Shown: positions 636 to 31,586 of the stretch, in pieces
How the letters are laid out: each line of letters starts with the position of its first letter
How positions within the stretch are numbered: position 1 is the stretch's first letter
Assembly: GCF_003945235.1 (NCBI RefSeq)
Contig: NZ_RSDW01000001.1
Coordinates: 750,001 to 782,000, forward strand
DNA from: Edaphobacter aggregans
GTDB lineage: Bacteria > Acidobacteriota > Terriglobia > Terriglobales > Acidobacteriaceae
DNA length: 32,000 nt
Direction: 5' to 3'
Notes under the pieces: generated by a model
What the model was told of the DNA's origin: nothing
What the model saw: only the letters and a program-made list of their open reading frames with translations
Database searches by the model: none
Translations under genes and position numbers: made by a program

Positions 636-804
636 CTGGGAACCCTCCTGTCTCGGAATCAGGATGGCCCGCAGCCACAGAAGGCATGCAACTGGCGATA
701 TGCCAGCGATTGACAGTATATGCCTATCGCGACGAAGAGGAGGACAATCGCGCAATCTATCCTCCAATCCACAGCTCAATGCTTGACGCCCACGATAGAC
801 TTAA

Positions 805-931
805 CTCAGAGAAATACAGTCCGGCGCGAGCCGGACTGTATGCTTTAACCAGACTAGAGTCCTGACCGAAGTCCAGACTTAACATCTATTTTTTGAAGAC
901 TTTGCACAATATCCCGGGAGGGGGAGAGTAC
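805..931 (+). repeat. modular intergenic element, copy A
   Basis: Modules: hairpin ACAGTCCGGC-gcga-GCCGGACTGT (816-839), TTTAACC (844-850), AAGTCCAGACTTAA (869-882), GAAGACTTT (895-903), GGGAGGGGGAG-aGTAC (916-931). The element ends directly at the ATG of the GH28 gene. It is alignable with copies at 15215-15330, 26165-26295 and 31340-31475. Confidence 0.75.
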
Positions 932-2332
932 ATGTCCGTAGTCCGAAAACACCTCAGCCGAGCCGCACTTATCGCTGCTCTTACCCTCTCCGCGCACGCC
1001 CAGACAAAAGTATTTTCGGCCAACACCTTCGGAGCCAAACCCGACGGCGGCACGCTCAACACCACCGCTATCCAGAAGGCCATCGACGCAGCCGCCCCAA
1101 CCCACGGCACCGTCACCTTCAACCCCGGCACCTATCTCACGGGCTCCCTCTTCCTCAAATCCGGAGTCACCCTCGCAGTCTCCGAAGGCGTAACCCTCAT
1201 CGGCTCCCAGCGTGTCGAAGACTACCCGATGCTTCCCACCCGCATCGCTGGCATCGAGATGACCTGGCCCGCTGCCCTCATCAATGTCCGTGACCAGCAA
1301 AACGTCACCATCACGGGCCGTGGCACCATCGACGGCGACGGCCCCATCTGGTGGAAGTCCTACTGGGACCTCCGCGCCACCTACGAGCCCAAAGGCCTCC
1401 GCTGGGCATCCGACTACGACGCCCGACGCCCCCGCCTCATCCTCTTCCAGAACTCCTCCAACATCCACCTAGGCGGCGGCATCGTCCTTAAACGTTCCGG
1501 CTTCTGGACCGTCCAGATCCTCTACTCCCACAACGTCACCCTCGACGGCGTCACCATCCGCAATAACGAAGGCGGCAAAGGGCCCTCCACCGACGGCATC
1601 GACATCGACTCATCCCGCGACGTCCTCGTCCAGCACGCCGACATCGACGTCAACGACGACGCCCTCTGCCTCAAAGCTGGCCGCGACTCCGACGGACTCC
1701 GCGTCAACCGGGCAACGGAAAATGTGGTGCTCCGCGATAGCATCATCCGCCACGGAGCAGCCGCCGTCACGATCGGATCCGAAACCTCCGGTGGCTTCCG
1801 CAACATCGAAGCCTACAACCTCACCGCCCTCGCCGGCGTCCCCTCCGGAGTCCTCTTTAAATCCGCCCGCACTCGCGGAGGCTTCGCCGACGACATTCGC
1901 ATCCACGACCTCACCCTCGAAGGCGTAGCCGTCCCCATCCACATCACCATGAACTGGAACCCCACCTATAGCTACGCCACCCTCCCACCCGACCTAAAAG
2001 ACCCACCCCCGTACTACATCACCCTCACCACTCCCGTCACGCCACCCGAAAAGGGACTCGCCCACTTCCACAACGTCCACATCTGGAACATCAAAGCCAC
2101 CGGAGCCAAGCGAGCCTTCGACGTCAGCGCCTACCCCGCCGCCCCGCTCGAGAACTTCAAAATCGACCACCTCAACATCGAAGCCCAGACCGCTGGCACC
2201 ATCGCCAACGCCAAAAACTGGACCCTCACCGACAACACCATCCAAACCGCCGACGGCTCCAAAGTAACACTCACCCAATCCACCCGCGAGCCCGACAACC
2301 CCAAAGACGTCCCCTTCGGAGAACCAAAATAA
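932..2332 (+). CDS. glycoside hydrolase family 28 (polygalacturonase / rhamnogalacturonan hydrolase-like), secreted
   Basis: GH28 blocks are present: STDGIDID, DVNDDALCLKAG, RHGAAAVTIGSE and FKSARTRGG, on a parallel beta-helix-type repeat pattern. Start moved from the track TTG (893) to ATG 932, which has a GGGAGGGGGAG SD. Signal peptide MSVVRKHLSRAALIAALTLSAHAQ. Confidence 0.85.
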   Translation: MSVVRKHLSRAALIAALTLSAHAQTKVFSANTFGAKPDGGTLNTTAIQKAIDAAAPTHGTVTFNPGTYLTGSLFLKSGVTLAVSEGVTLIGSQRVEDYPMLPTRIAGIEMTWPAALINVRDQQNVTITGRGTIDGDGPIWWKSYWDLRATYEPKGLRWASDYDARRPRLILFQNSSNIHLGGGIVLKRSGFWTVQILYSHNVTLDGVTIRNNEGGKGPSTDGIDIDSSRDVLVQHADIDVNDDALCLKAGRDSDGLRVNRATENVVLRDSIIRHGAAAVTIGSETSGGFRNIEAYNLTALAGVPSGVLFKSARTRGGFADDIRIHDLTLEGVAVPIHITMNWNPTYSYATLPPDLKDPPPYYITLTTPVTPPEKGLAHFHNVHIWNIKATGAKRAFDVSAYPAAPLENFKIDHLNIEAQTAGTIANAKNWTLTDNTIQTADGSKVTLTQSTREPDNPKDVPFGEPK

Positions 2333-2395
2333 ACCTCCGTGAGGTTGCTGAAAATACTCTCGTTTCGAAAGGGGTGCGACTTGCCTCTACCCAAA

Positions 2396-2454
2396 GCGTC
2401 ATCCTGAGCGGAGGCGCGCGCTTTTTGCGCGTCGAAGTCGAAGGACCCCGAAGG
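2396..2454. repeat. REP-like GC-rich hairpin element between convergent genes
   Basis: The sequence gcgtcatcctgagcggaggcgcgcgctttttgcgcgtcgaagtcgaaggaccccgaagg contains a CGCGC-ttttt-GCGCG hairpin. It lies between the stop codons of GH28 and the RNB gene. It resembles dispersed extragenic repeats I recall from Acidobacteriota, but that recollection is not verifiable here. Confidence 0.4.
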
Positions 2455-2511
2455 TTAACAACCCACCTCAGATCTTCATACCTTTCAGCCACAACAACCT
2501 GGAACCCCACC

Positions 2512-3972
2512 CTACGCACGCCCAAAATCGATAAACGCATGCTGCGGATTGGTATGCAGCAGGGTCACATCCACCATGTCCCCAACATCCAGCCCATGCT
2601 CGCCCCGCACCACCTTCCCCTCAACCGGAGGATCGAACACCCGTACATAAACTCCCTTGTCGTTAGCTCCTGTAATCACTCCATGGAACGTCTTCCCGAT
2701 GCTCCCCGCCAGTGCCACCGCAGCAACCCGCTTCACCATCGCCCGTTCCACCTTGCGCGCCGCCGAGTCTCGCTCATTGCAATGCTTCGCAATCGCTGCC
2801 AACTCGTCGGCCGTGTAGGGCGGAGCCTTGCCATCCAGCCACGCGTCCACCACCCGCTGCGTTACGAGATCAGGAAATCTCCGGTTCGGCGCCGTTGAGT
2901 GAGCATAATCCTGAGCCGCCAGCCCAAAGTGCCCCGGGGGATCGTCTTCATCACCCTTAGCCAGCACATACTCCCCCGGCCCCATCAGCTTAATAATCGA
3001 CAACGACAGATCCGGATAGTGCACCGCATCCGCCGCCCGCTGCGCCTGCAAGAACGCATTCAGAGCACCCGAATCAGGTTGCGACGGCAACACCGTTCCA
3101 TGCCGACCCACCAACTCCACAATCCGAGCCCATCGCTCCGGAGACCGCACCACGCGCTGAATACACGACCGTTTCGCCGCCCGCAGCGTCTTCGCCATCG
3201 TCTCGTTCGCGGCAATCATCAACTCCTCAATCAGGTCCGCCGCCCGATTGTGAAATACCGCCTTGATCGACTTCACCTGACCATCCACCATCACCGGATC
3301 AGCCTCAACCCGGTTGAACTCCAGCGCTCCCATCCTCACCCGCTGCCCATGCAGCGCAATCGCCGCCTCATCCTGCAGCCGCAACTGCTCCTGCAACTCA
3401 ACCGATGCCGCGACCTTCGCATCCGCCGCACCCGTACCCTCCAGCCACGGCCCTACCCGGCTGTAAGCCAGCTGCGCCTTGTTGTTGACGAGAGCCCGAT
3501 AAATACTAGTTTGCCCCACCGCACCCTCACCATCCACCACAAACTCGACGACATGCGCCGCACGATCCTGCCCCTCATTCAGCGACGTCAAATCCGTCGA
3601 AAGCTCCGTCGGCAGCATCGAGAAATTCCGCACCGCCGTATACACCGTCTGCGTCTGTTCCCGCGCAAACTCATCCAGCGGAGTGTCCTTCAAAACCCAT
3701 GCCGCAACATCCGCAATCCCCACCCGCACACGGATGCCGCCCTCTACCCGCTCCGCAACCTCAACCTGGTCGAGATCGCGCGAAGTATCGTTGTCAATCG
3801 AAGACCACATCAACCCACGCAGATCGCGCTCACCAGCATCGGTGGCCTTCGCCTGCGCCGCACGAATCGCAGCCACCTGCTCGTCACACCCATCAGGATA
3901 TCCAACAACAAACCCCTCGCGAATCATCTCAGCGGAGGCAGCAGCAACCAGATCAAACCCATTATTATGCAT
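2512..3972 (-). CDS. RNB-domain exoribonuclease (RNase II/R family, short form) with C-terminal S1 domain
   Basis: RNB motif I SIDNDTSRDLDQ (residues 58-69) and an RNB core. The C-terminal S1-like segment is GKTFHGVITGANDKGVYVRVFDPPVEGKVV. At 486 aa there is no room for the N-terminal cold-shock domains of RNase II/R. Confidence 0.8.
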   Translation of the reverse strand: MHNNGFDLVAAASAEMIREGFVVGYPDGCDEQVAAIRAAQAKATDAGERDLRGLMWSSIDNDTSRDLDQVEVAERVEGGIRVRVGIADVAAWVLKDTPLDEFAREQTQTVYTAVRNFSMLPTELSTDLTSLNEGQDRAAHVVEFVVDGEGAVGQTSIYRALVNNKAQLAYSRVGPWLEGTGAADAKVAASVELQEQLRLQDEAAIALHGQRVRMGALEFNRVEADPVMVDGQVKSIKAVFHNRAADLIEELMIAANETMAKTLRAAKRSCIQRVVRSPERWARIVELVGRHGTVLPSQPDSGALNAFLQAQRAADAVHYPDLSLSIIKLMGPGEYVLAKGDEDDPPGHFGLAAQDYAHSTAPNRRFPDLVTQRVVDAWLDGKAPPYTADELAAIAKHCNERDSAARKVERAMVKRVAAVALAGSIGKTFHGVITGANDKGVYVRVFDPPVEGKVVRGEHGLDVGDMVDVTLLHTNPQHAFIDFGRA

Positions 3973-4010
3973 GCAAATGGAAGCCTACCACGCAATCCAT
4001 CACAACAACT

Positions 4011-4451
4011 TCAACAAGCCGGACTCCGTCGATATACGGTCCGAATGACATAGTCCTTCTGCGGCCCACGAACCTCATGCCGCACCTCAAAGCTCCCATC
4101 AGACCGAACCATATACCCAGAGAGATAAAGATCATTCACACACACATGACGAGCCTCACCCACAAGATCATCGCCACTCGTCACAAACCGCATCACATGG
4201 AAGAGCTCACGCGTATCGGCAAACCGCACCGCAAACCCATCATCTCTCTTCTCATAGACGTAGCTCTGCCGGCTATGCAGCGTCTGTCCACCCTTCAGAC
4301 AGAGCTCACCCGACTCCTCATACAAAGCCGTCTCCCCATCCAGCCGTGTGAACCGCGCATAGCCTTTCATGCAGCCACACCCCGAAATCTCGCGCTCCAG
4401 GCTCCACTCTCCAAGCAGCCCCTCGAACACTCCACCCGCGACGCTCATCAC
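4011..4451 (-). CDS. small hypothetical protein, DUF6314-like (family assignment from memory of the G-x-W-x-L-x-R-x-I N-terminal pattern)
   Basis: 146-aa ORF starting at GTG 4451 or ATG 4448, only 3-6 nt after the rhaB stop (4455-4457), so probably co-translated with the rhamnose operon. N-terminus GEWSLEREI...GYARF. Confidence 0.6.
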   Translation of the reverse strand: MMSVAGGVFEGLLGEWSLEREISGCGCMKGYARFTRLDGETALYEESGELCLKGGQTLHSRQSYVYEKRDDGFAVRFADTRELFHVMRFVTSGDDLVGEARHVCVNDLYLSGYMVRSDGSFEVRHEVRGPQKDYVIRTVYRRSPAC

Positions 4452-4454
4452 TCG

Positions 4455-5921
4455 TCAGCCTATCGCGCCCACAAACAACCCAGCCCACCGCGAAACCTGC
4501 TCCGCATAAGCCCCCGTCACCGCATCCCGGCCACCCTCCAGCACCGCCAGCTGCACCGCAAAGTTCCCCACCGTCGAACTCTCCGCCGCCCCACGAAAGA
4601 CCTCCAACCCCGTAGCCTCCGCCGTAAGCCGGTTCAAAAAATCATTCTGACTAGCCCCACCCACAACAAACAACCGCTTCAACTTCTTCCCGCTATGAAG
4701 CGCAATCCTGTCTAGCACCTTCGCATACCGAGCCGCCAGACTATGAAAGATCAAGCTGGCAAACACCGGAGCATTCTCAGCTCCCTCATCCAGCGCCTCA
4801 TACCCCTTCCTCACCCGCTGGGCATTGATTCGCTGCGGCATCCGGCCAGCCAGCAGCAAATCCGGATCATCAACATCCAGCAACCCGCGCGGCTTCGCAG
4901 TCTTCTCTGCCGCAGCCACCAACTCCGGCACAGTCCAAGCCCGTCCGCCCGCGGCCCACGCATCCATACACTGCCGAATCAGCCACATCCCATTTACATT
5001 CTTGTGAAAGCAGATTCTTCCCCCAACAGCACCCAGATTCGTAAAATTCTCCTCACGCGCCTCCTCCCCATTGCGAGGCTGCTCCAGCACCGTCCCCACC
5101 AGCGACCACGTCCCCGAGCTGATATAAGCCCAGTCATTCCCTGTCGCCGGAATCCCCGCAATCGCCGAAGCAGTATCATGGCAAGCCGGAGCGATCAGAA
5201 CCGCATTCCGCAACTCCGGAAGCTCTGCCAACGGCCCGCTCAATCGCCCCACCTCCGTTCCCGGTGGAACAATCTTCGCCGCGCAGGCAAGATCAAGCTC
5301 AGCTGCCTGAAATATCTCCCGGCACCACTGCGGCTTATACAGCTCCACCATCTGCGTATGTGTAGCATTCGTATGCTCAGCCACGCGAGCCCCACCCCAC
5401 CGCGACAGAATGTACTCCGGCAGATTCAGCCACTGCCGTCCCTCCGGCACTCCATCCAGCGCGTCCGCATAAAGCTGATACAGCGTATTGATCCGCAACA
5501 GCTGAACACCCGTCAGCTCCCGCAAGCGCTCCGGCCCGATCTTCCGATGCAGTGACCGCTCCGCCTTCACCGTCCGCTCATCGCGATAGCAGAAAGGATC
5601 GCCCAGCGGCAGCCCCTTCGCATCGAGCCGAACATAGTCCACCGCCCACCCGTCGACAGCAATCGACCGCACACCCTCCGTCGCAATCGAAGCACATCGC
5701 CGAACCCCTTCTTCGAGTCCGTCGACAATCATCGCCAAATCCCAGCGCAGCCCCCCATCCACCTCACGCGGAGCATTCACAAACCGGTGCACCAGCTCAA
5801 TCGCCGGCTTACCCTTCACCCACCGCAGCAGCGAAACCCGGCAGCTCTCCGCCCCCAGGTCCACCGCAATCGAAGCTCGCTTATCCTTCGGCAGTAACGC
5901 CATCCCAGGCGTTCTCCTCAT
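4455..5921 (-). CDS. rhaB: rhamnulokinase (FGGY carbohydrate kinase)
   Basis: FGGY kinase with an RhaB-like N-terminus ...IAVDLGAESCRVSLL. The start is set at ATG 5921-5919, which forms an ATGA overlap with the rhaEW stop (tcat at 5918-5921 on the + strand). The alternative ATG is at 5903. The track ORF start (6020) lies inside the upstream gene. Confidence 0.85.
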   Translation of the reverse strand: MRRTPGMALLPKDKRASIAVDLGAESCRVSLLRWVKGKPAIELVHRFVNAPREVDGGLRWDLAMIVDGLEEGVRRCASIATEGVRSIAVDGWAVDYVRLDAKGLPLGDPFCYRDERTVKAERSLHRKIGPERLRELTGVQLLRINTLYQLYADALDGVPEGRQWLNLPEYILSRWGGARVAEHTNATHTQMVELYKPQWCREIFQAAELDLACAAKIVPPGTEVGRLSGPLAELPELRNAVLIAPACHDTASAIAGIPATGNDWAYISSGTWSLVGTVLEQPRNGEEAREENFTNLGAVGGRICFHKNVNGMWLIRQCMDAWAAGGRAWTVPELVAAAEKTAKPRGLLDVDDPDLLLAGRMPQRINAQRVRKGYEALDEGAENAPVFASLIFHSLAARYAKVLDRIALHSGKKLKRLFVVGGASQNDFLNRLTAEATGLEVFRGAAESSTVGNFAVQLAVLEGGRDAVTGAYAEQVSRWAGLFVGAIG

Positions 5922-8131
5922 CGCAAATAGGCCTCGGTCAACCCGCCGTCCACTGGAATCAGATGCCCCGTTGTGCACCGTGCCAGCGGCCCGGCAAGAA
6001 ACATAATCGCCTGCGCACAATCCTTCGGATCGATCGGCTGATGCGTCAGCGTCCGCGTGGCATAGAACTTCGCCAGCTCATTCCGCAGCCCGTCATCTGT
6101 GTCCTTCTCATCAAACGGCAGCTTGTACTTCTTCAGCGAAGCAATCACGCGATCCCGCGGAAACATCGTCGACCCCTTCACCACCGTAGCCGGCGAAATC
6201 CCATTCACCCGCACCTTCGGAGCCATGCTCACCGCCAGCTCCCGCACCAGATGGCTCAGCGCAGCCTTGCTCACGTCATAGGCCTCGCTGCCTCGCTTGG
6301 CCACAACCGCATTCGCCGAACTCGTCAGCACGACACTCGCGTCAATTCCCTGCTCAGCAAACACCTTCGCCGCCTCATCGGCCAGCAGATAGTTCGCCGT
6401 AACATTGACCTCCAGCGTCAACGCCCACTGAGCATCGCTGATCACGCCATCCGGCGAGGAAGGAAACAACGCAGCCGTATTGATCAAAATATCGATCCCG
6501 CCAAACTGATTCGTCGTAGCCTCAAGCGCAGCCTTGATCGCCTTCCTATCTCGAATGTCGATGCTAGTCCAGCTAACCGCTTCCTTACCGGCAATCGCCT
6601 TGATCTCATCCGCCACCTTCTCCGCACCGGCAACATCGCGGTCCGCAACCACAACATGAGCCCCACGCTCAGCAGCCAGCAAAGCCACCTCACGCCCAAT
6701 CCCGCTGCCACCGCCAACAATCAGAGCAACCCGCCGGCTCAACTCCTTCTCAGGAGGCTGCCTGCGAATCTTAGCCTCCTCCAGCTTCCAGTACTCAATC
6801 CGGAACGCCTCACTAGGCGGCAACGCCACATAATTCGAGTACACCGTAAACTGATCCGCCGAAGCAGCCGGTCCAGCCTGAGGAATCTCCTTGCAATCCA
6901 CACCAGCACCCAGCGCACCAGCCCCTTGCATCACGCCTATCGCATTGATGTAGAACTCACCCGTGATCCGCGACTCAGTCTTATTCTTCCCAAAGCTGAA
7001 CATCCCCACGCCCGGCACCAGCACCACCGTAGGACTCGCGTCGCGCACCGCAGGCGAATCCGGCAAAGCATGCTTCTTGTAATACTCCGCATACTCCGCC
7101 CTGTACGTCTCCAGAGCCATCTCAATCAGCTCCTTCAACTCCCCAGGCTCTCCCGCAGGATTCCACTTCACAAACATCGGCCGAATCTTCGTCCGGATAA
7201 AGTGGTCCGGGCAACTCGTCCCCAGATGCGCCAGCTTCTCCGCCTGCGCCGAGTTCACAAAATCCAGCACCTGTTTCGAATCCGAAAAGCTCCCAATCCA
7301 CCGCTGCTTCCGCGAAACCGCGCCCCGCAGATACGGCATAATCCCCGCAGCAATCTCCGCGCGATCCTCCCGCGCCTTCACCGCCTCCCCACCGAAGTGA
7401 TTATGCCCAGCCACCGCTCCATGCCGCTCAATAAACTGCCCCAGCTGATCGATGATCGTGATCGTATTCAGATAGCTCTCACGCTGCGTATCGCCCCACG
7501 TAAACAGCCCATGCCCACCCAGCACCACACCATCACAACCGGGCGTCTCGGCCACAATCTTTTTCAACATCATCCCCAGCTCAAACCCTGGCCTCTGCCA
7601 CGGTAGCCAGGCGAGCTTATGTCCAAACTCCTTATTGAACTCCTCCATCTTCAACTTCCCATTCGCCGAGGCCGCCAGCGCGATCCCCCAGTCCGGATGC
7701 AGATGGTCCACATGCGCAAATGGCAAAAACCCATGCAACGGAGTATCGATCGAAGCCGCCACAGGATTATTCCCAAACGTACACAGCGGATACATATCCA
7801 CCATCTCGTCTTCCAGTTCAACCCCGCGATACATCTTCTCCAGCGCCAGCAGCTTATCCAGATACAGCGTCGCAAACCCCGCTCGCTTGATGCTTCCCAG
7901 GTCCCCCCCACTACCCTTCACCCAAAGAATCTTCTTCGTCTGCCCATCCACCGGATCCACCTGCTCCAGCTTCGAACTTGTATTGCCCCCGCCAAAGTTC
8001 GTAATCCGCAGGTCCGAGCCCAACAAATTCGATCGATACCTCAGAAGCTCAGGCTCATCCAGCTTCGACGCCACCGCGTCATCCCAACGATCCTCCAAAA
8101 ACTTCAACCCACTCTTCGCCGTCATCTTCAA
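5918..8131 (-). CDS. rhaEW: bifunctional rhamnulose-1-phosphate aldolase / L-lactaldehyde dehydrogenase (class II aldolase N-domain + SDR C-domain)
   Basis: 737 aa. N-terminus LKFLEDRWDD...LLRYRSNLLGSDLRITNFGGGNTSSK is typical of YuxG/RhaEW. The C-terminal SDR has IVGGGSGIGREVA (Rossmann) and YDVSKAAL (YxxxK). Adjacent to rhaB. Confidence 0.9.
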   Translation of the reverse strand: MKMTAKSGLKFLEDRWDDAVASKLDEPELLRYRSNLLGSDLRITNFGGGNTSSKLEQVDPVDGQTKKILWVKGSGGDLGSIKRAGFATLYLDKLLALEKMYRGVELEDEMVDMYPLCTFGNNPVAASIDTPLHGFLPFAHVDHLHPDWGIALAASANGKLKMEEFNKEFGHKLAWLPWQRPGFELGMMLKKIVAETPGCDGVVLGGHGLFTWGDTQRESYLNTITIIDQLGQFIERHGAVAGHNHFGGEAVKAREDRAEIAAGIMPYLRGAVSRKQRWIGSFSDSKQVLDFVNSAQAEKLAHLGTSCPDHFIRTKIRPMFVKWNPAGEPGELKELIEMALETYRAEYAEYYKKHALPDSPAVRDASPTVVLVPGVGMFSFGKNKTESRITGEFYINAIGVMQGAGALGAGVDCKEIPQAGPAASADQFTVYSNYVALPPSEAFRIEYWKLEEAKIRRQPPEKELSRRVALIVGGGSGIGREVALLAAERGAHVVVADRDVAGAEKVADEIKAIAGKEAVSWTSIDIRDRKAIKAALEATTNQFGGIDILINTAALFPSSPDGVISDAQWALTLEVNVTANYLLADEAAKVFAEQGIDASVVLTSSANAVVAKRGSEAYDVSKAALSHLVRELAVSMAPKVRVNGISPATVVKGSTMFPRDRVIASLKKYKLPFDEKDTDDGLRNELAKFYATRTLTHQPIDPKDCAQAIMFLAGPLARCTTGHLIPVDGGLTEAYLR

Positions 8132-8198
8132 ACCTCAAATCTTTCGTTTCGCCGTAACGCAGGCGCACTACCACGCCGTCCATCATTCCACACTCAAG

Positions 8199-8219
8199 AC
8201 CAATACAGCAACTATTTCC
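8199..8219 (-). promoter_or_regulatory. candidate operator, motif RGAAAY-N8-TATTGR (site upstream of rhaEW)
   Basis: The minus strand reads GGAAAT-AGTTGCTG-TATTGGT, 68-88 nt upstream of the rhaEW ATG. The same architecture occurs at 10698-10718, 13841-13862 and 21797-21817. Confidence 0.4.
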
Positions 8220-8246
8220 AATGTGAAAAACGTCTAGGACCGCCCA

Positions 8247-9371
8247 CTATTCAACTGCAAGCAACGACTCCCGCGTCACCATCTTGTGAGCCACATAGTT
8301 ATAAGGCGGCACCGTCTGCCCACGCAACAGCGATAGCCCCAGGTGAATCAGGCTCGGCCCATACGACCCAGCCTCATGCGACACAGATCCAATCAGCGGC
8401 GACTTATCTTTCTTCATCTCCGATATCACCTCGGCAATGCAGTCCTGCCCCACAATCGCCACATGCTTCTCGCGTTTCAGCTCTCGCACCGCTTCCACCG
8501 CACCCAGCGCACTCGAGTCTGTCGCCGCCGCAATCAGAATGTGTTTGTCCTTAGGATGTCGCTGCAAAAAGTCCGACACCAGCTTCTTACTCTTGTCCCG
8601 CATTCCGCGCCCGTCGATCCGCACAAACGACTCCACCGGCAGCTCCGGAATCCCGCTCCTCACACCCTCAAACGCCCCCGTGATTCTGCTCTGCACCAGC
8701 GGCCCGGCCTCCTGCAGATCAAGCCCCAGCACCCACTGAACGGTGCCCTCCCAGTTCGCCTTCGCAAACGCCGCCAGCGTCTGACCAGCCTCAATCCCAA
8801 CCCGATAGTTATCCACCCCAAAGTAAGTCGCATGAGGATGCGGAATATCGATCGCGATCAGCGGAATATTCGCCGCCGCAATCCTATCGCCGATCATCGG
8901 CGCCACCTCCTGCTCCACCTGGAACTCAATCACAAGATCAACCTTGCTCCGGACAAACTCGTCGGCATTCTTCAACGCCGTGGGTCCGTCGTATCGATTG
9001 TCCAGCACCATTAGATCCACGCCCACCGAAGCCGCCGCATCCCTCAGACTCTCCGTCACCTCATTCGAGAACGGCATATCCGCGCTTTGCCCCGCGAACC
9101 CAAACCGCATCTTCTTCGGCCGCGTCACCTGTCGATACATACCATCCGGCGACTGCGACAGATACCCTCGATGCACAAACGTCTTCAGCACCCGGTACAC
9201 CGTCGTCTTCGAGATTCGCGTCTGACGATGGATCGCCTCCAGCGTCATTGGCTGATTCTCTGCCTGCAGCAATTCAAGAATATCCAGCGCCTTCGAAAGC
9301 ACTGGAATCAGATACAGTCTCTTCGTCGTCTTCCGTCCCGCCATAAGCTCCTTGGGCAGAGGCATAAGCAC
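8247..9371 (-). CDS. transcriptional regulator: IclR-type winged HTH fused to a periplasmic-binding-protein type I (LacI/RbsB-like) sugar-binding domain
   Basis: The N-terminal LSKALDILELLQAENQPMTLEAIHRQTRISKTTVYRVLKTFVHRGYL looks like an IclR HTH. The rest (RFGFAGQSADMPFSNEVTESLRDAA...VDLVIEFQ...IPLIAIDIPH...VGQDC) looks like a PBP1 sugar-binding fold. GTG start at 9371; the alternative ATG is at 9365. Confidence 0.75.
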   Translation of the reverse strand: MLMPLPKELMAGRKTTKRLYLIPVLSKALDILELLQAENQPMTLEAIHRQTRISKTTVYRVLKTFVHRGYLSQSPDGMYRQVTRPKKMRFGFAGQSADMPFSNEVTESLRDAAASVGVDLMVLDNRYDGPTALKNADEFVRSKVDLVIEFQVEQEVAPMIGDRIAAANIPLIAIDIPHPHATYFGVDNYRVGIEAGQTLAAFAKANWEGTVQWVLGLDLQEAGPLVQSRITGAFEGVRSGIPELPVESFVRIDGRGMRDKSKKLVSDFLQRHPKDKHILIAAATDSSALGAVEAVRELKREKHVAIVGQDCIAEVISEMKKDKSPLIGSVSHEAGSYGPSLIHLGLSLLRGQTVPPYNYVAHKMVTRESLLAVE

Positions 9372-9461
9372 TCAGCCGCTCCATTATGCGGCACAAAGAC
9401 TTATTCCGCTAATGGAATTCGTACGATTCGCGTTTCCAAATCGTCAGCAAGCCCGAAAACT

Positions 9462-10667
9462 TCACGCATAGCTGGAAACACTACGAGCATTCCTGCTGCT
9501 GCGTTCCTGCGTCACCCTCTCCACATACCCGCCCTCTGCCAAAGCCTTCAATGGATCAACCGGGAGTCCCCGTGCCACTCTCCACTCTCGGACAATCGGC
9601 CGCACATCCTGCCAGAACGCCCCACGGAAGCACTCCTCCGCCTCAACCAGTCGGCAAGCATCCTGCAACTCCGCCAACCGCACCTGGTCGATCAGCGCAG
9701 CCTTCGCATAAAGCTCCTGAGCGGTCACGACCGTCTGGACCATTGCCTCCATCTTGCCCTTCAGGTTGTGGCTCTGATCGATCATGAACGCCACCTCTGC
9801 ACGTTCATCCTCCCTCGCACTCACAATCTCGTGGAATATCCGGAACACCTGATAAGGATCGATCGACCCCAGCGTCAGATCATCATCCGCATACTTTCGG
9901 TCGTTGAAGTGGAAACCACCCAACGCTCCCAGATGCAGCAGCCACGCCACTACCTGCTCGATGTTTGTTCCCTGATAGTGATGCCCCGTATCCACCAGCA
10001 CCTTCGCCTTCGGGCCAGCTCGACGCGCCAACTCCAGCGCCATCCCCCAATCCGCGATGTCCGTATGATAGAAAGCCGGCTCAAACGGCTTGTACTCCAC
10101 CAGCATCCTCTGGTCCGCTCCCAGAGCAGCGTGCGTCGCTCCTAGCACCTCCACCATCCACTCAATCCGCCGTCTCACGCTCTGCGTCCCCGGATAGTTC
10201 GACCCATCCGCGATCCAAAGCGACACATCCTTCGATCCCAGCGCCCGCCCGATCTCCACCGAATCCAGCAAATGAGCCAGCGCCCGCCCCCGTATCTCCG
10301 CACTCGGATTGGCAATCGACCCGAACTTATACTCCTGATCCTGGAAAAGGTTCGGATTGATTGATCCCGACCTCACCCCATACTTCTTTTCAAGCTCTCG
10401 AATCGTCGCAACATCCTTCACCCCACCCGGCAGGTCCCAAAGCACATGCAGCGCCACCGTCGGACTCGCTCCCGTCAGGGCATTCACCTGCCCGGCGTCG
10501 GAAAACTTCTCTTCAATCGTCGTCGCCGCCCCACCCTGCACAAACTTGCCAAACCGAGTCCCCGTATTCGCAAAGCCCCATGACGGCACCTCAATCCGAA
10601 AGCCATCCAGGGCACGCCAAATCTTCTCCGCATCCCGCTCCGCTGCGCCTGCCCCGTTCACTGTCAT
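9462..10667 (-). CDS. rhaI: L-rhamnose isomerase (xylose-isomerase-like TIM barrel, Streptomyces/P. stutzeri type)
   Basis: Sequence WGFANTGTRFGKF...TIEEKFSDAGQV...VDTGHH...FHFNDRKYADDDL. Start moved to ATG 10667, which has a GGAGGGG SD 4 nt upstream. The track start (10769) would read through the promoter-like region. Confidence 0.85.
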   Translation of the reverse strand: MTVNGAGAAERDAEKIWRALDGFRIEVPSWGFANTGTRFGKFVQGGAATTIEEKFSDAGQVNALTGASPTVALHVLWDLPGGVKDVATIRELEKKYGVRSGSINPNLFQDQEYKFGSIANPSAEIRGRALAHLLDSVEIGRALGSKDVSLWIADGSNYPGTQSVRRRIEWMVEVLGATHAALGADQRMLVEYKPFEPAFYHTDIADWGMALELARRAGPKAKVLVDTGHHYQGTNIEQVVAWLLHLGALGGFHFNDRKYADDDLTLGSIDPYQVFRIFHEIVSAREDERAEVAFMIDQSHNLKGKMEAMVQTVVTAQELYAKAALIDQVRLAELQDACRLVEAEECFRGAFWQDVRPIVREWRVARGLPVDPLKALAEGGYVERVTQERSSRNARSVSSYA

Positions 10668-10697
10668 CGCACCCCTCCAGCCCTGCAAATCGTACTT

Positions 10698-10718
10698 AGA
10701 AATATACTCTCTATTGAA
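10698..10718 (+). promoter_or_regulatory. candidate operator, motif RGAAAY-N8-TATTGR (rhaI promoter)
   Basis: The plus strand reads AGAAAT-ATACTCTC-TATTGAA, 31-51 nt upstream of the rhaI ATG. It overlaps a TATATT -10-like hexamer on the minus strand (10706-10701). Confidence 0.45.
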
Positions 10719-10787
10719 ACATAAGCAGACTGCACCATCCCCCCAACCCTTGTCAAAGAGTTTCTTCACCCATCAGGCCATTCCGCC

Positions 10788-10841
10788 AGAGCAAATTTCG
10801 TGATGAAGAGCAAATTCGCGATTAGAGATGGAGCAAACTTC
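10788..10841 (+). repeat. three direct repeats AGAGCAAATTTC / AGAGCAAATTC / GGAGCAAACTTC upstream of rhaI
   Basis: Repeats at 10788-10799, 10807-10817 and 10830-10841, with start-to-start spacing of 19 and 23 nt. Located 120-175 nt upstream of rhaI. Confidence 0.5.
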
Positions 10842-10877
10842 TCGCAGTGAGCGCCAACGGTGCAGCCTATACCAGCC

Positions 10878-10931
10878 TGGGGCAACGCCCCATGTCTACG
10901 GATTTCCCCTAGCAACGAGGGCTGAAAGCCC
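10878..10931. repeat. REP-like short GC hairpins
   Basis: TGGGGC-aac-GCCCCA (10878-10892) and GGGCT-gaa-AGCCC (10919-10931) lie in the 325-bp rhaI-lutC spacer. Similar GGGGC-taaa-GCCCC / GGCT-ga-AGCC hairpins occur at 31587-31640. Confidence 0.4.
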
Positions 10932-10992
10932 GACCCATATCTTCTTCCTACTCCCTGAAATGCACGTCGGGAGATTCGTCATAAGCCTCGAT

Positions 10993-11664
10993 TCAAAGCT
11001 CCCCAGTGAGCACCACATCGAGAAACCTCGGCCCGTGTACTCCCTTGATCCGCGTCATCTCGATATCCGCCGTAGCCGAAGGCCCCGAAAAGAACGTCGT
11101 CGGCAACTCAGCCGTAGACGCCAACCGATCCATCGCCTCCGGAACCGTCTCCACCACATCCTCCACCCGCACCACACAAAGGTGATAATCCGGGACCAGC
11201 GTAGCCGCCCGTTTCCCCTGCCCCGCCACATTCTGGAGCACGACCGTACCCGTCTCCGCAATCGCCACCGTCGAGCCGGTCATCACCCCATCGAACCCAT
11301 CCAGTTCCGAAGCCGACAACCCCTCATCCACCACAAACTCAAATCCCGCCGGAAGCAACTCCGCCTCAATCCCTACCGGAACAACCATCCGTCGCTTACC
11401 ACGTTTAGCCAGCATTTCTCCAACAGCTACCGCAATTCCACCACGACCTACCCGCACAACATGCGCGTCATAATCCCTCAGCCGATCCTCCAGCAACTCA
11501 ATCACCGCCTGCCGCTCAAGCGAAGCCTTTCGCCGATACCCCCGCTCCACGCCCGCCCACGCGGCCCGCACACCAGCTTCATCGCTAGCCCCACCCTTGG
11601 CCGCACAAATCCGCCGCAAAACCTCAGCCCTCGCAGCCGAATTTGTAACTATCTCAGTTGCCAT
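10993..11664 (-). CDS. lutC: lactate utilization protein C (LUD domain)
   Basis: LutC-like sequence ...VPVGIEAELLP...GVMTGSTVAIAETGTVVL...RAATLVPDYHLCVV...FFSGPSATADIE. It follows lutB. Start taken as ATG 11664 (G-rich SD just upstream). The alternative GTG is at 11691. Confidence 0.8.
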   Translation of the reverse strand: MATEIVTNSAARAEVLRRICAAKGGASDEAGVRAAWAGVERGYRRKASLERQAVIELLEDRLRDYDAHVVRVGRGGIAVAVGEMLAKRGKRRMVVPVGIEAELLPAGFEFVVDEGLSASELDGFDGVMTGSTVAIAETGTVVLQNVAGQGKRAATLVPDYHLCVVRVEDVVETVPEAMDRLASTAELPTTFFSGPSATADIEMTRIKGVHGPRFLDVVLTGEL

Positions 11665-13093
11665 TCTTCCCCCGGCTCTCCCACCACTCACGAAACGTCT
11701 CTTTCGGCATGGCCTGCAGATCCCTCACCTGCGTCCACCCACCCAAAATCCCCGGCAACCAGCCAATCCACCCCTCACCCTGACCATCCTTCCGCACCAG
11801 CGGAGCCTCGGCCATACGCCCAAGCCGTTGCGCCGCCCTGAATCTTGCCTCGCTCCGGAAGATCATCCCCATCGTCTTCATCGCCAGCGACTCGGCATTC
11901 AGCCCATTCTGTTTCACGACCTTATTCCGCAGATGAATCAATACCTCCGGAATATTGATCTTCACCGGACAAACCTCATAGCAAGCCCCGCACAGCGACG
12001 AAGCATAAGGCAGCGACTGCGCATGATGCATCTCCTGCAACTGCGGCGTCAGAATCGCACCGATTGGCCCCGCGTACACGCTCCCATACGCATGCCCACC
12101 CGTCTGTCGATACACCGGGCAAGCATTCTGGCAAGCCCCACACCGAATGCAATTCAGCGTCTGCCGCCCCTCCTCATCCGCCAGAATCTCCGTCCGCGCA
12201 TTATCCATCAGCACCACATGAAACGTCTGCGGCCCATCCCCCGCCCGCACGCCCGTCCAAATCGAGTTGTACGGATTCATCCGCTCGCCGGTCGCCGAAC
12301 GTGGCAACAACTGCAGCACAACCTCCAGGTCCTGATACCGCGGCAACACCTTATCGATCCCCGCAATCGTAATCAGCGTCTCTGGCAGCGTCAGGCACAT
12401 TCGCCCATTGCCTTCGCTCTCGACGATGCAAACCCCGCCAGTCTCCGCGATCAAAAAATTCGCCCCGCTAACCCCCGTCTTAACCCGCAGAAACTTCTCT
12501 CGCAGAAACCGCCGAGCCGCATCCGCCAGATCCTCCGGCTTCTCACCCAACTCCGGCAGATTCATCTCCCGTTGAAAAATCTCCCGAATCTGCTGCCGGT
12601 TCTTATGCAGCGCCGGAACCACAATATGCGAAGGCTGATCACGCCCCAGCTGAATAATCAGCTCTGCCAGATCCGTCTCATACGCCCGAATCCCCGCCGC
12701 CTCCAGCGCGTCATTCAGATGAATCTCCTCGGTCGTCATCGACTTAATCTTGATGACCTCATCCGATCCAGAAGCCTTCACCAGAGCAGTAACAATCTGC
12801 CGAGCCTCCGCCGCATCCCGAGCCCAATGCACCACCCCACCAGATCGCGTGCAGTTCCGTTCAAACTCCTCCAGATAAAAATCCAGATTCTCCATCGTGT
12901 GCTGACGAATCTGCTTCCCCGCCTCACGCAACTGCTGCCAATCCGGCATCTCGTCCACCACACGAGCCCGCTTAGCCTGAATCACCTCCGTAGCATGACG
13001 AACATTCTTCCTGAGCTGCGTATCCCCCATCGCAGCCTTCGCCGCCATCGGAAACGCAGGCGAAGTCGTTGGGTCCAGCACCGCTCCACTCAT
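11654..13093 (-). CDS. lutB: lactate utilization protein B (4Fe-4S, LutB/LldF)
   Basis: Two ferredoxin-type cysteine clusters, CIRCGACQNACPVY and CGACYEVCPVKI, plus a DUF162/LUD region. ATGA overlap with the lutA stop (tcat at 13090-13093). Confidence 0.9.
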   Translation of the reverse strand: MSGAVLDPTTSPAFPMAAKAAMGDTQLRKNVRHATEVIQAKRARVVDEMPDWQQLREAGKQIRQHTMENLDFYLEEFERNCTRSGGVVHWARDAAEARQIVTALVKASGSDEVIKIKSMTTEEIHLNDALEAAGIRAYETDLAELIIQLGRDQPSHIVVPALHKNRQQIREIFQREMNLPELGEKPEDLADAARRFLREKFLRVKTGVSGANFLIAETGGVCIVESEGNGRMCLTLPETLITIAGIDKVLPRYQDLEVVLQLLPRSATGERMNPYNSIWTGVRAGDGPQTFHVVLMDNARTEILADEEGRQTLNCIRCGACQNACPVYRQTGGHAYGSVYAGPIGAILTPQLQEMHHAQSLPYASSLCGACYEVCPVKINIPEVLIHLRNKVVKQNGLNAESLAMKTMGMIFRSEARFRAAQRLGRMAEAPLVRKDGQGEGWIGWLPGILGGWTQVRDLQAMPKETFREWWESRGKNGN

Positions 13094-13827
13094 CGCGCAC
13101 CCTCTTCCCCAGCCAGAATCTCCGCCAAATGCACCGTCTTAACCCCCGTCCGCTGCCGATGCAGACCCCCCTGAATATGCATCAAGCACGAGTTATCGCA
13201 AGCAGTACAAGCCTCCGCCCCCGTATTCAGCACAGCCGTAGTCTTCTCCGCCAGCATCGCGCTCGAAACCTCCGCGTTCTTCACGGCAAACGTCCCACCG
13301 AACCCACAGCACTGCTCCAGCCCCTCAATCTCGACGAGATCAATCCCCCGCACAGCCTTCAGCAGCCTCTGAGGCCCATCTCCCAACCCAAGATTCCGCA
13401 ACCCATGGCAGCTGGCGTGATACGTCACGCGATGCGGATAATAGGCCCCCACATCCTCCAGCTCCAACCGCTTCGTCAAAAACTCCGAAAACTCAAACAC
13501 CCGAGGCACCAGCGCCTCAACCTCAGCAATCAGCTTCTCGTCTTTCAGCGAAGCCGCCATCTTCGGATAATGATCACGAATCATCGCCACACAAGAAGAA
13601 GAAGGCACCACCACCGCCTCCGCCCCCTTGAACTGCTCCACAAACCGGGCCACCAGCGGCAGGGCTTCCGCCTGATACCCTGTATTCCAATGCATCTGTC
13701 CGCAGCACGTCTGACCCGCGGGAAACTCCACCGTATGCCCCAGCCGTTCCAGCACCCTGACTACGGCCTTGCCAGTCTCAGGAAACAGCGTGTCGTTGTA
13801 GCAGGTAATAAACAGCGAGACTCGCAG
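13090..13827 (-). CDS. lutA: lactate utilization protein A ((Fe-S)-binding, CCG-domain oxidoreductase)
   Basis: CCG motifs (TCCGQMH and QCCGFGG). The track ORF starts at GTG 13755. The same frame stays open upstream and encodes LRVSLFITCYNDTLFPETGKAVVR, the conserved LutA N-terminus including its first Cys. The only plausible initiator there is CTG 13827-13825, 4 nt after GGAGGG (13837-13832). The 5' end is therefore uncertain. Confidence 0.8.
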   Translation of the reverse strand: MRVSLFITCYNDTLFPETGKAVVRVLERLGHTVEFPAGQTCCGQMHWNTGYQAEALPLVARFVEQFKGAEAVVVPSSSCVAMIRDHYPKMAASLKDEKLIAEVEALVPRVFEFSEFLTKRLELEDVGAYYPHRVTYHASCHGLRNLGLGDGPQRLLKAVRGIDLVEIEGLEQCCGFGGTFAVKNAEVSSAMLAEKTTAVLNTGAEACTACDNSCLMHIQGGLHRQRTGVKTVHLAEILAGEEGAR

Positions 13828-13840
13828 AACACCCTCCGCA

Positions 13841-13862
13841 ATTCAATAGAAATTCAATTTCC
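13841..13862 (-). promoter_or_regulatory. candidate operator, motif RGAAAY-N8-TATTGR (lutA / rhaT divergent region)
   Basis: The minus strand reads GGAAAT-TGAATTTC-TATTGAAT. On the plus strand it reads ATTCAAT-aga-AATTCAAT, a direct repeat. It shares TTCAATAGA and about 17 of 22 positions with the rhaI site. Confidence 0.45.
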
Positions 13863-13931
13863 CCAACGCAACTCGCGTCAGGTACGATAGTACGCGCTAA
13901 CGATCCATTATTATTCACCGAACGAGGACTC

Positions 13932-15152: not shown

Positions 15153-15214
15153 GCCTCATAGAATCATTCAGATCCCTCTGGCATATCAATTTCCCTCAAC
15201 CCGATATACTGGAA

Positions 15215-15330
15215 ATAGCGACAAAAAGCCCCGGCCACCACCGGGGCTTTTTCATTATGCAAGGAGGAAGTCCAGACCTAAGTCATCTGTTCCGAAGACT
15301 TTAGGACAATAAGTACGGGAATGGGGTACT
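15215..15330 (+). repeat. modular intergenic element, copy B
   Basis: Modules: hairpin (15223-15252), AAGTCCAGACCTAA (15268-15281), GAAGACTTT (15294-15302), GGGAATGGGGTAC, which ends on the galT stop codon (cta at 15329-15331). It lacks the TTTAACC module. Confidence 0.7.
15223..15252. terminator. bidirectional intrinsic terminator between rhaT and galT
   Basis: AAAAAGCCCCGG-ccacca-CCGGGGCTTTTT is a perfect 12-nt-arm hairpin with an A-tract and a T-tract flank, so it can act on both strands. It is also the hairpin module of repeat copy B. Confidence 0.75.
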
Positions 15331-21817: not shown

Positions 21818-21875
21818 AAATCAAAATTTGACAAACAAATTTCTCGTAAGCAGCTATGTTGAAACCGCTCGACGT

Positions 21876-26039: not shown

Positions 26040-26164
26040 CCCTCACCGTTTTGGCCGCTGCTTTTGCCGTTGGTCTCGCTGTTGTCAACCCCATCCCACC
26101 CTAACCCATTCAAAACCAATAACATCCAAGTGCCAATCCATTACTTCCTCGCCGGTATAATAGA

Positions 26165-26295
26165 AATAGAAACAAAAAGAGCCCCAGGCAATACTGGGCT
26201 CTCCGTATTTAACCTGATACCTGATAACCAGACCAAGTCCAGACTTAAAGTCTCTCAATCGAATACGTTAGAACCAAAGTATAGGGGGAGGATAC
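26165..26295 (+). repeat. modular intergenic element, copy C
   Basis: Modules: hairpin AGAGCCCCAG-gcaata-CTGGGCTCT (26178-26202), TTTAACC (26208-26214), AAGTCCAGACTTAA (26235-26248), AGGGGGAGGATAC, which ends at the truB stop (tta at 26296-26298). Confidence 0.7.
26171..26202 (-). terminator. intrinsic terminator of the GT2-PTPS-PTPS-folE-truB transcription unit
   Basis: On the minus strand the hairpin AGAGCCCAG...CTGGGGCTCT is followed by TTTTTGTTTC. It lies about 95 nt downstream of the truB stop. Confidence 0.65.
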
Positions 26296-31339: not shown

Positions 31340-31475
31340 GATGGGTACTCCCCCTGGTGGACGTAAGATCTCAAAGTCTTCGAACGAAATGGTTTAGGTC
31401 TGGACTTCTGGTCTGTGGGTTAAATGCGAAGAGCCCCGGCTTTCGCCTGAGGGCTCTTTTTGTGTCTAGTTCTAT
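31340..31475 (-). repeat. modular intergenic element, copy D (inverted orientation)
   Basis: Read on the minus strand: hairpin AGAGCCC...GGGCTCT (31457-31430), TTTAACC (31424-31418), AAGTCCAGACCTAA (31407-31394), GAAGACTTT (31381-31373), GGGGGAGTAC, then 6 nt, then ATG 31339. Confidence 0.75.
31429..31462 (+). terminator. terminator-like hairpin plus T-tract with no upstream plus-strand gene
   Basis: AAGAGCCCCGGC-tttc-GCC-tga-GGGCTCTT followed by TTTTGTGTC on the plus strand. It is the hairpin module of copy D. Confidence 0.5.
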
Positions 31476-31586
31476 TTTAGCGGGTCGAGGGGAATGATTA
31501 GGCACGGAGATGTGCTTTGGAATGTGGAGGATACGTAGGTTGGGGGCTTGACAAGGTTTTGGGCTGGGATAGGAAGGCATACCCCA

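Follow-up and report, generated by a model that had tools for sequence, protein, structure and literature searches.

What kind of element recurs four times within 32 kb, each time filling the space up to a start or a stop codon? The preliminary description of the window (the whole 32-kb stretch of DNA analyzed here) reported four copies, A to D, of a modular intergenic element of ~115 to 135 bp and proposed a MITE/REP-like mobile module, a family of cis-regulatory leaders, or a small-RNA family. All four copies were located where they had been placed, with the same block order in each (Table 1).

Four copies in the window and a family in the Acidobacteriaceae

The left box of the element, AAGTCCAGACYTAA, matched exactly at four places in the window, three on the plus strand and one on the minus strand, and nowhere else at up to two mismatches. 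Shuffles set the chance expectation at 0.20 matches, and none of 100 shuffled sequences reached four, which bears out the near-invariant core reported for the four copies. A spacer of exactly 12 nt separates the left box from a second box in each copy, and this spacer is followed in all of them by GAAKACKTT and then by a G-run. The second box reads GAAGACTTT in copies A, B, and D and GAATACGTT in copy C, and TTTAACC is present in A, C, and D and missing from B; both had been correctly ascribed to three of the four copies. In copy A, GTAC directly adjoins the ATG at 932 of a GH28 hydrolase gene (Pfam), i.e., the distance is 0 nt as first described, whereas in copy D 5 nt, and not 6, lie between GGGGGAG-TAC and the ATG at 31339 of a conserved gene for a Cys-rich protein (MTEPKRYQCRHIF...). 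The latter gene carries the upstream motif also in L016, L038, L083, L086, L105, L019/L076, and L090. The ends of copies B (GGGAATGGGGTAC) and C (GGGGGAGGATAC) run into the stop codons of galT and truB, as the coordinates bear out; both genes lie on the minus strand and their identities were confirmed by Pfam. Specifically, copy B shares part of its TAC with the stop codon of galT (CTA, 15329-15331), and copy C adjoins that of truB (TTA, 26296-26298). The left-hand neighbors of these two copies are RhaT, which ends at 15152, and a GDSL esterase, which ends at 26039, respectively.

Table 1. Core units and accessory features of copies A to D in the window
Copy	Feature	Position	Strand	Details
A	Upstream TTGACG-N7-TAGACT	783..801	+	CTTGACA-N7-TAnAAT arrangement, as in other loci
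A	Accessory hairpin TACAGTCCGGC/GCCGGACTGTA	815..840	+	-24.8 kcal/mol, z -7.1
A	TTTAACC	844-850	+	
A	CCAGAC/CCTGAC repeats	849-866	+	
A	Core unit	869..931	+	Left box 869-882; T-rich spacer 883-894
A	Right box GAAGACTTTG	895-904	+	
A	G-run	916-926	+	GTAC 928-931
B	Promoter-like module TATACT-GGAAATAG	15205..15219	+	-10-like hexamer and start-site context; pattern match
B	Accessory hairpin GCCCCGG/CCGGGGC	15228..15252	.	-20.5 kcal/mol, z -5.3
B	Core unit	15268..15330	+	Left box 15268-15281
B	Right box GAAGACTTTA	15294-15303	+	
B	G-run GGGAATGGGG	15318-15327	+	
C	Promoter-like module TATAAT-AGAAATAG	26156..26169	+	Pattern match
C	Accessory hairpin and TTTAACC	26179..26214	.	Hairpin 26179-26201; TTTAACC 26208-26214, then CCTGATA repeats; -14.3 kcal/mol, z -3.3
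C	Core unit	26235..26295	+	Left box 26235-26248
C	Degenerate right box GAATACGTTA	26261-26270	+	
C	G-run GGGGGAGG	26284-26291	+	ATAC 26292-26295
D	Promoter-like module TAAAAT-AGAACTAG	31461..31479	-	Pattern match
D	Accessory hairpin and TTTAACC	31418..31456	-	Hairpin 31456-31431; TTTAACC 31424-31418; -19.9 kcal/mol, z -4.3
D	Core unit	31345..31407	-	Left box 31407-31394
D	Right box GAAGACTTTG	31381-31372	-	
D	G-run GGGGGAG	31354-31348	-	GTAC 31348-31345

The family was delimited by a scan of one genome per species with the pattern AAGTCCAGACYTAA-N12-GAA, which matched at least 120 loci, nearly all of them in Acidobacteriaceae. The matches listed come from dozens of genomes, including Granulicella, Edaphobacter, Tunturiibacter, Bryocella, and many metagenome-assembled genomes (MAGs). 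Removal of eight weak or chance matches (five degenerate family members and three chance hits) left 117 copies, so that the family numbers at least 117. Positions A30, C31, T32, T33, and T34, which lie outside the search pattern, are invariant in at least 115 of these 117 copies among the matches listed. A wider search could have disclosed no more copies, or a generic similarity alone; that doubt about the preliminary description falls, because at least 117 copies that keep the AAGTCCAGACYTAA/GAAGACTTT core, with near-invariant columns beyond the pattern, were recovered from dozens of Acidobacteriaceae genomes. The description therefore captured a real, repeated, and modular intergenic family but drew it too wide: the conserved unit is only ~60 bp long, from AAGTCC to the G-run. 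It consists of AAGTCCAGACYTAA, the T-rich 12-nt spacer with near-invariant T residues at +20, +23, and +24, GAAKACTTTR, GCGCA, an A- or T-run, and the G-run at ~+48 to +58, with (G/A)TAC beside the end of the G-run in ~40% of the copies among the matches listed. Its left edge is sharp, with conservation ending abruptly left of the first A and extending for 60 bp on one side only.

The left box is a near-palindrome of 12 bp, AAGTC-CA-GACYT, and its half-sites AAGTC/GACTT are repeated, with extra AAGACTTT boxes upstream in several loci. A profile search of the flanks of the listed loci uncovered variants that keep TAA-N12-GAAKACTTTR with a different left box, often another palindrome, at the same distance; in one family, the left box is tandemly iterated with a period of ~11 bp. 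The same search found ~1 further copy per 30 kb of these flanks, and extrapolation from ~1 copy per 10 to 30 kb suggests perhaps a few hundred copies per genome. This family of ~60-bp intergenic motifs of soil Acidobacteriaceae is apparently undescribed: a literature search returned no paper in which the sequence appears for bacteria, no work that deals with promoters or repeats of acidobacteria, and no start-site maps for this family.

Strong hairpins lie upstream of all four window cores (-14 to -25 kcal/mol, z -3.3 to -7.1), and their sequences differ, in agreement with the preliminary description, which had them conserved in position only; across the family, however, they are a minority feature. 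The hairpin and TTTAACC are found in about a quarter of the copies among the matches listed, and a hairpin with a T-tract on its far side accompanies only 27 of 109 family members among them (~25%). Accordingly, the claim that the galT and truB 3' ends carry a hairpin and T-tract terminator stands for B and C but does not extend to most of the family. The hairpin of copy B is flanked by an A-tract at one end and a T-tract at the other; it lies 76 nt past the RhaT stop codon and looks like a two-way terminator. No intrinsic terminator (GC-rich hairpin plus U-tract) was found inside the core unit. The A-tract, the hairpin, TTTAACC, and the CCAGAC-like repeats are accessories of a minority subset that includes this window. 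In 25 of 107 copies among the matches listed, B, C, and D included, the same strand carries, 61 to 240 nt upstream, a promoter-like module made up of the hexamer TAnnnT and, behind it, an A-rich stretch that ends in YAG; none of three equally large control sets contains it. This module resembles the rRNA promoter of L090, TTGACA-17-TACCTT-AGAAAAGTAG.

Gene boundaries and strand polarity

Among the matches listed, 113 of 117 copies lie outside predicted genes. The G-run is followed by a start codon in 26 of 107 listed copies, mostly 1 to 15 nt on, and by the stop codon of a convergent gene in 54 of the 107, at a distance of no more than 13 nt in 33 of these. Abutment on a start or stop codon, first described for this window, is a statistical property of the whole family. 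According to a cruder gene finder, and again among the matches listed, the right-hand neighbor is co-oriented in 46 cases and convergent in 51, and the left-hand neighbor is co-oriented in 52 and divergent in 32; all four neighbor configurations occur, and 23 copies lie between converging genes. One such convergent case is borne out by RefSeq on a plasmid of Granulicella tundricola, where 4 nt separate the end of the motif from the stop codon of xylA. The flanking genes are diverse housekeeping and carbohydrate genes with no common function suggestive of a regulon, and no tRNA gene is adjacent as a downstream target. Copies at divergent genes were discarded as proof of promoter activity, the gene calls being too uncertain.

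The orientation of the motif follows strand composition. Its written strand is the C-rich, or more fully the C/A-rich, strand, as GC skew is negative in 99 of the 113 8-kb loci among the matches listed (mean -0.15), and within ±1.5 kb the rule is obeyed by 134 of 143 units (94%), including units with other left boxes. Motif orientation is independent of the direction of the neighboring genes. Neighboring genes on either strand have the same skew sign, and because of this the polarity is not a by-product of gene direction. Third-codon-position GC skew reaches 0.5 to 0.78 and is tied to the DNA strand rather than to the gene; in the window, it amounts to -0.77 for GH28 and -0.62 for RhaT on one strand and to +0.55 for galT and +0.52 for truB on the other. 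Skew is about -0.3 over most of the length of the window and flips its sign at ~29.6 kb; copy D, the sole minus-strand copy, lies in the flipped part. The link of orientation to strand composition was not part of the preliminary description.

A replication origin at the skew switch of the window (27 to 30 kb) was rejected, since this region contains folE, PTPS, glycosyltransferase, AhpC, and HAD hydrolase genes instead of origin-type genes. A role of the motif as a skew-domain boundary was rejected as well, the averaged skew profile having no step at the motif. Plasmid pACIX902 has two skew arms with a switch near repA/parA, and both of its motif copies point toward this switch; its annotated genes of both orientations follow the arm, with an arm effect of ~0.35 to 0.5 and a gene effect of ~0.1 to 0.25. 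In MAG chromosomes, the skew switches sign again and again (on one of them, -0.26 gives way to +0.30 in the space of 16 kb), and a survey reported low replichore-scale bias in the phylum (PMC4613354). The polarity may be determined by a replication direction scrambled by rearrangements or by some other domain-level process.

Candidate roles of the unit

We tentatively read the unit as a protein-recognized promoter/leader cassette that would fire toward the adjacent gene boundary, in sense or antisense. The invariant blocks, their fixed spacing, the free T-rich spacer, the sharp left edge, and the one-sided conservation over 60 bp make up the pattern of a DNA recognition site plus a transcribed leader. 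We infer the initiation of transcription and its direction, the binding of a protein to the left box, and the antisense role of B- and C-type copies as follows. A putative DNA-binding protein would recognize the left box, placed where a -35 element would be, and GAAKACTTTR would supply a -10-like hexamer, (T/G)ACTTT, whose second-position A and sixth-position T are kept in at least 115 of 117 copies among the matches listed. Transcription on the written strand would start near GCGCA or the A-run, and the short leader of the transcript would be unstructured, with the G-run as its dominant part. In copies that precede a start codon, such as A and D, the G-run would be the Shine-Dalgarno sequence of the gene that begins there; where a convergent stop codon follows, as in copies B and C, the product would be a noncoding transcript antisense to the 3' end of that gene (galT or truB). 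Copies A and D would then be ordinary in kind, each with an upstream terminator hairpin, a promoter, and a ribosome-binding site. The preliminary description was right that generic terminators plus a Shine-Dalgarno sequence are insufficient to account for the copies, but, given this promoter-like layout and the second such module upstream of a quarter of the copies, it dismissed an ordinary promoter too fast.

Several features of the family argue for the promoter cassette. The left box is swapped for other palindromes or iterated every ~11 bp, like regulator sites on promoters. The hexamer (T/G)ACTTT followed by GCGCAAAAAGTA resembles both the -10/start context of the L090 rRNA promoter and the promoter-like modules found upstream. 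Co-oriented right-hand genes mostly start 1 to 15 nt past the G-run, and a location flush with a start or stop codon is natural if the cassette sits at a fixed short distance from the boundary across which it fires. The core folds worse than dinucleotide shuffles, with a mean z of +0.60 ± 0.09 on the written strand and +0.32 on the other, which fits an accessible leader; the left flank is structured (z -1.0). The four window cores are also unstructured, that of copy A having a z of +1.19 as RNA. Finally, the 62-bp unit is as conserved between orthologous loci as the neighboring coding sequence.

Other observations sit badly with a promoter. Among the matches listed, roughly one copy in two points at the 3' end of a convergent gene, and one in three is flanked by a converging pair; an antisense product has to be assumed there, because no mRNA can be driven in convergent cases. 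An orientation that follows strand composition is unlike that of any ordinary regulon. The -35-like match is weak, consisting of GAC alone with an 18-bp spacer, and the G-run is kept where it cannot serve as a Shine-Dalgarno sequence, both in copies of the B/C type and in L100 and L108, whose start codons are 20 to 25 nt distant. In addition, a quarter of the copies have a separate promoter-like module upstream, and the core could be an operator or a leader there. In a by-eye comparison, none of the sigma-54, sigma-28, ECF, and Bacteroidetes-type promoter consensus sequences fitted the unit.

Nearly as likely as the promoter cassette is a polar DNA site of architectural or roadblock type, the boxes of which would be bound as duplex by a putative host protein. 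Such a site could act, for example, as an insulator or RNA polymerase roadblock at gene boundaries, as a site for a topoisomerase or a nucleoid protein, or as a signal oriented by replication, working in a REP/BIME-like manner; it would start no transcription, and its G-run would have been recruited as a Shine-Dalgarno sequence only in copies that happen to precede a start codon. Indifference to gene direction, evident from the occurrence of all four neighbor configurations, and strand polarity fit this possibility better than they fit the promoter cassette. It is also consistent with the aim of both pACIX902 copies at the skew switch, with invariant blocks that lack RNA covariation, with the repeated half-sites and the extra upstream boxes, and with flanking genes that share no function. 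The polar DNA site, however, leaves unexplained the G-run end flush with start or stop codons, the presence of an A/T run and a G-run within the conserved unit, and the conservation of the "variable" columns at each orthologous locus. Moreover, its G-run is on the strand opposite to that of KOPS-type signals.

A rather improbable extension, applicable to either role, ties the use of the element to the way in which a strand-asymmetric process runs, replication being the simplest choice. Cassettes might fire only against the fork; genes on the C-rich strand would then be transcribed into mRNAs, genes on the G-rich strand would have their 3' ends covered by antisense RNAs, and the G6AG5 run near the start could act as a ribosome platform or an R-loop seed. 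Or else the motif might help to set kilobase-scale strand asymmetry. If the polarity is functional, the motif would be a genuinely new kind of intergenic signal.

The record of inheritance bears on a third reading, which we consider unlikely: a relic or domesticated interspersed repeat of REP/MITE-like nature, spread by strand-specific copying (e.g., single-strand transposition into the lagging-strand template), which would fix its orientation relative to replication, with old copies partly co-opted as ribosome-binding sites or 3' ends. Many dispersed intergenic copies, four in 32 kb here and about one per 30 kb in the flanks of other loci, a strand polarity like that of IS200/IS605-type insertions, and the frequent (G/A)TAC at the end of the G-run would suit such an origin. 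So would a localized replacement detected between the window and its 97% relative L127, in which the flanks are 91 to 93% identical and an internal 38-nt segment is only about half identical. Copies are also slightly more alike within genomes than between them (spacer identity of 0.53 versus 0.42; upstream 40 nt, 0.28 versus 0.26). Yet the spacer and flanks are near random among the copies of one genome, the window copies being 0.33 to 0.50 identical to each other in the spacer. The unit has neither terminal inverted repeats nor subterminal hairpins: its left end, AAGTCCAGAC, and its right end, the G-run plus TAC, are not complementary. Multi-copy loci are same-strand tandems without inverted pairs around a gene, and no transposase was found associated with them.

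In orthologous pairs, the 62-bp unit is 0.8 to 0.9 identical, like the neighboring coding sequence, against ~0.5 for the remaining intergenic DNA, and therefore the unit has been inherited vertically under constraint at each locus. The copy after galT is kept in 8 of the ~14 closest galT relatives (metagenome loci), with boxes that drift stepwise. In the close relatives L128 and L132, the motif is absent at galT and the neighboring gene is also different; neither a clean empty site nor a target duplication was seen at the galT loci of close relatives. Boxes that are invariant across genera, together with orthologues that drift gradually, point to purifying selection at fixed loci. The MITE/REP-like mobile module originally proposed is not supported, in view of the missing inverted ends, the near-random unconstrained columns within a genome, and the persistence of orthologues.

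It is just as doubtful that the unit works as RNA, linear and without structure, in transcripts of either orientation, serving the right-hand gene either in its 5' untranslated region (UTR), with the G-run as ribosome-binding site, or in its 3' UTR, with a C-run resembling an anti-Shine-Dalgarno sequence. The two kinds of transcript might base-pair or share an RNA-binding protein. The element always falls in a UTR of the right-hand gene, its core avoids self-structure, and the galT and truB transcripts would cross the elements of copies B and C before reaching the hairpin. Invariant blocks at fixed spacing without covariation would also be expected if many RNAs had to stay mutually complementary. 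This proposal nevertheless requires two complementary RNAs to be both functional and leaves strand polarity unexplained. Furthermore, an A-tract for termination of the convergent transcript is present in only 3 of 16 stop-codon-class hairpins, and left boxes that can be exchanged for other palindromes or iterated in tandem have the look of DNA sites.

The last reading takes the copies for structured small RNAs or for leaders of a riboswitch-like kind. RNAalifold on the four copies, applied to both strands, returned only the accessory hairpin and an AAGTC/GACTT stem, and this stem is broken in 30% of the 117 copies among the matches listed; position 29, opposite an invariant C, is G in 81 and T in 35 of the listed copies. 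The G-run of a few copies is bracketed by AAGTAC...GTACTT, of which copy C has one compensatory variant. However, a GUAC...GUAC stem that would display the G-run in a CsrA-like manner was rejected, as it forms 1.77 pairs on average compared with 1.82 for shuffled partners. No long-range covariation was detected, mutual information being confined to adjacent columns. No Rfam family matched over the element, either in the window at the gathering score and at E ≤ 5 or in five loci at E ≤ 10; the suggested check against acidobacterial motifs came out negative, with no match to Acido-1 or Acido-Lenti-1 at E ≤ 5. The sequences thus bring a structured RNA, whether a cis-regulatory leader or a small RNA as initially envisaged, close to exclusion. 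Collectively, a structured RNA and a young MITE are both unlikely because there is no Rfam match, no covariation, poor folding, no inverted ends, low likeness within genomes, and vertical inheritance. No single reading explains everything.

Significance and comparison with known systems

Acidobacteriaceae are among the most abundant soil bacteria, and, to our knowledge, almost nothing is known about the control of acidobacterial genes. Near-invariance across genera combined with high repetition implies that the motif must be read by conserved cell machinery, and identification of its reader would open gene regulation or chromosome biology in the phylum. A link of orientation to very strong strand asymmetry is unusual for an intergenic element. 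It offers a handle on whether this asymmetry is replication driven or organized in local domains and on whether bacterial gene boundaries can harbor elements with a polarity relative to replication. In practical terms, the motif is a candidate cassette for strong ribosome binding and expression in acidobacterial genetics, and it could serve as a marker with which annotated gene starts are corrected.

The REP/BIME elements of enterobacteria and pseudomonads are likewise short, strictly extragenic, present in many copies per genome, and located near gene ends in any gene orientation, and they are bound by host proteins. REPs, however, form hairpins from their imperfect palindromes and are associated with RAYT transposases, whereas the motif has no hairpin, its one-sided series of blocks finishes with a G-run, it has been conserved from genus to genus, and it is strongly strand polar. 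MITEs, IS200/IS605-derived palindrome-associated elements, BOX, and Correia elements are also dispersed modular intergenic repeats, and IS200/IS605 insertions are polar with respect to replication. The motif differs from all of these in its lack of inverted ends, subterminal hairpins, target duplications, and high within-genome similarity, and in its long orthologous retention. The Rfam motifs Acido-1 and Acido-Lenti-1 come from the same phylum and are intergenic, but neither matched over the motif at any threshold tried. Acido-Lenti-1 was found only ~400 nt from the motif in L036, as a separate feature.

A sigma-70-type promoter with an operator at -35 (e.g., a Pho-box or class II activator arrangement) shares with the motif a pair of boxes kept at a constant distance by a T-rich spacer, a GC-rich stretch past the -10-like box, an A-rich start context, a Shine-Dalgarno sequence, and an upstream box that can be swapped or iterated with helical period. 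The motif departs from such promoters in that half of its copies have no gene to express, its -35 element is poor, and its orientation is set by strand composition. KOPS (GGGNAGGG) and Chi resemble the motif in their strong orientation bias with strand asymmetry, and the G-run of the motif often contains GGGNAGGG. These signals are nonetheless 5- to 8-mers that lie mostly inside genes on the G-rich leading strand, whereas the motif spans 60 bp, is intergenic, and has its G-run on the C-rich strand; being on the wrong strand, the G-run was rejected as a KOPS. The motif is REP/BIME-like in distribution, resembles an operator-bearing promoter in layout, and is akin to KOPS and Chi in polarity, and it differs in defining features from each of these systems and from MITEs and Rfam families.

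Strand asymmetry along the window

The window is marked by extreme strand asymmetry, with a GC skew of about -0.3 and a third-codon-position skew of 0.5 to 0.77. This skew is set by the DNA strand and not by the gene strand, so that galT, truB, and the FtsX-like gene have codon endings opposite to those of GH28, RhaT, and the GDSL esterase. Its sign switches near 29.6 kb, a position at which replication-origin genes are absent. Along MAG chromosomes as a group, skew sign forms a mosaic. An inverted duplicate of the motif and a downstream Cys-rich gene occurs at two loci 16 kb apart on the same contig (L019 and L076), and local skew at these duplicates is opposite (+0.30 and -0.26). Two zero-skew patches lie within the skewed region of the window, one corresponding to a TonB-dependent-receptor-like gene and the other to a folE/PTPS/glycosyltransferase stretch that also has a lower GC content (0.48 to 0.52). 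On the plasmid pACIX902, receptor genes exhibit a large gene-level skew, which could cancel the arm-level skew.

Coordinates of features in the window and in related loci
Feature	Window	Other loci	Basis
C-rich plus strand	801-17600; 21600-27200		GC skew
G-rich plus strand	29600-31600		GC skew
Zero-skew patches	17719-21711; 27200-29600		
-10-like TAnAAT with upstream box	15170-15210; 26125-26161; 31515-31474 (-)	Other family loci	
Box TTTGACAAAC and AGCTAT	21828-21866		
C/A-rich tandem repeats	849-866; 26213-26234	L016, L083, L086, L095	
galT-side motif copy compared	15268-15330	L127:3535-3600	
Sub-family example		L044:1235-1500	
Acido-Lenti-1 RNA		L036:2537-2581 (-)	Rfam RF01687, 49.7 bits

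Variation within and beside the motif

Comparison of the galT-side copy in the window with that of the L127 locus revealed only ~50% identity over a 38-nt stretch inside the motif, in a pair whose GalT proteins are 97% identical and whose flanks are 91 to 93% identical. Over these 38 nt the window is matched better by the more distant L129. The internal stretch looks like a replaced segment, putatively originating from conversion by another copy or from local hypermutation. Short C/A-rich tandem repeats separate the hairpin from the core and vary in period (CCTGATA, CTAACAAC, AGCTAGCC, and CCTGGAC); they may be products of slippage or a spacer poor in G. Family-wide, TAG is the stop codon of about 19 of the 32 convergent genes that end at most 13 nt from the G-run, a share that seems high for a GC-rich genome, with motif-adjacent genes alone counted. 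The Acido-Lenti-1 RNA is a separate feature ~400 nt from the motif.

A sub-family with a short reading frame

In the loci L003, L044, L047, L058, L066, L081, L110, and L114, a conserved reading frame of 27 codons (MTEATETRRIFAFTTSHALSASLTSIF) comes after the motif and tandem AGTCCAGAC repeats. Its TGA stop falls within a second unit, in the GAATACTTT box; the left box of this second unit differs and is palindromic (CTCGCGCGCTTAGCGCGAG). The ATG of the reading frame is missing from two members. Across the sub-family, ATCTTCGCCTT is invariant and synonymous changes are absent, which suggests constraint at the nucleotide level.

Boxes and promoter-like modules outside the core

The box TTTGACAAAC of the window, followed 18 nt on by AGCTAT, faces the stop codon of the FtsX-like gene (21876) and coincides exactly with the start of a skewed domain. 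The CTTGACAAAC box found at this site also occurs 55 to 85 nt upstream of the motif in ~20 other loci, where a recognizable -10 at 17 bp is absent. The -10-like TAnAAT is preceded by TTGGCA/CTGGCA at ~21 nt or by CTTGACA at just 7 nt. Neither spacing suits a sigma-70 promoter; by contrast, the rRNA promoter at L090 has the normal spacing of 17.
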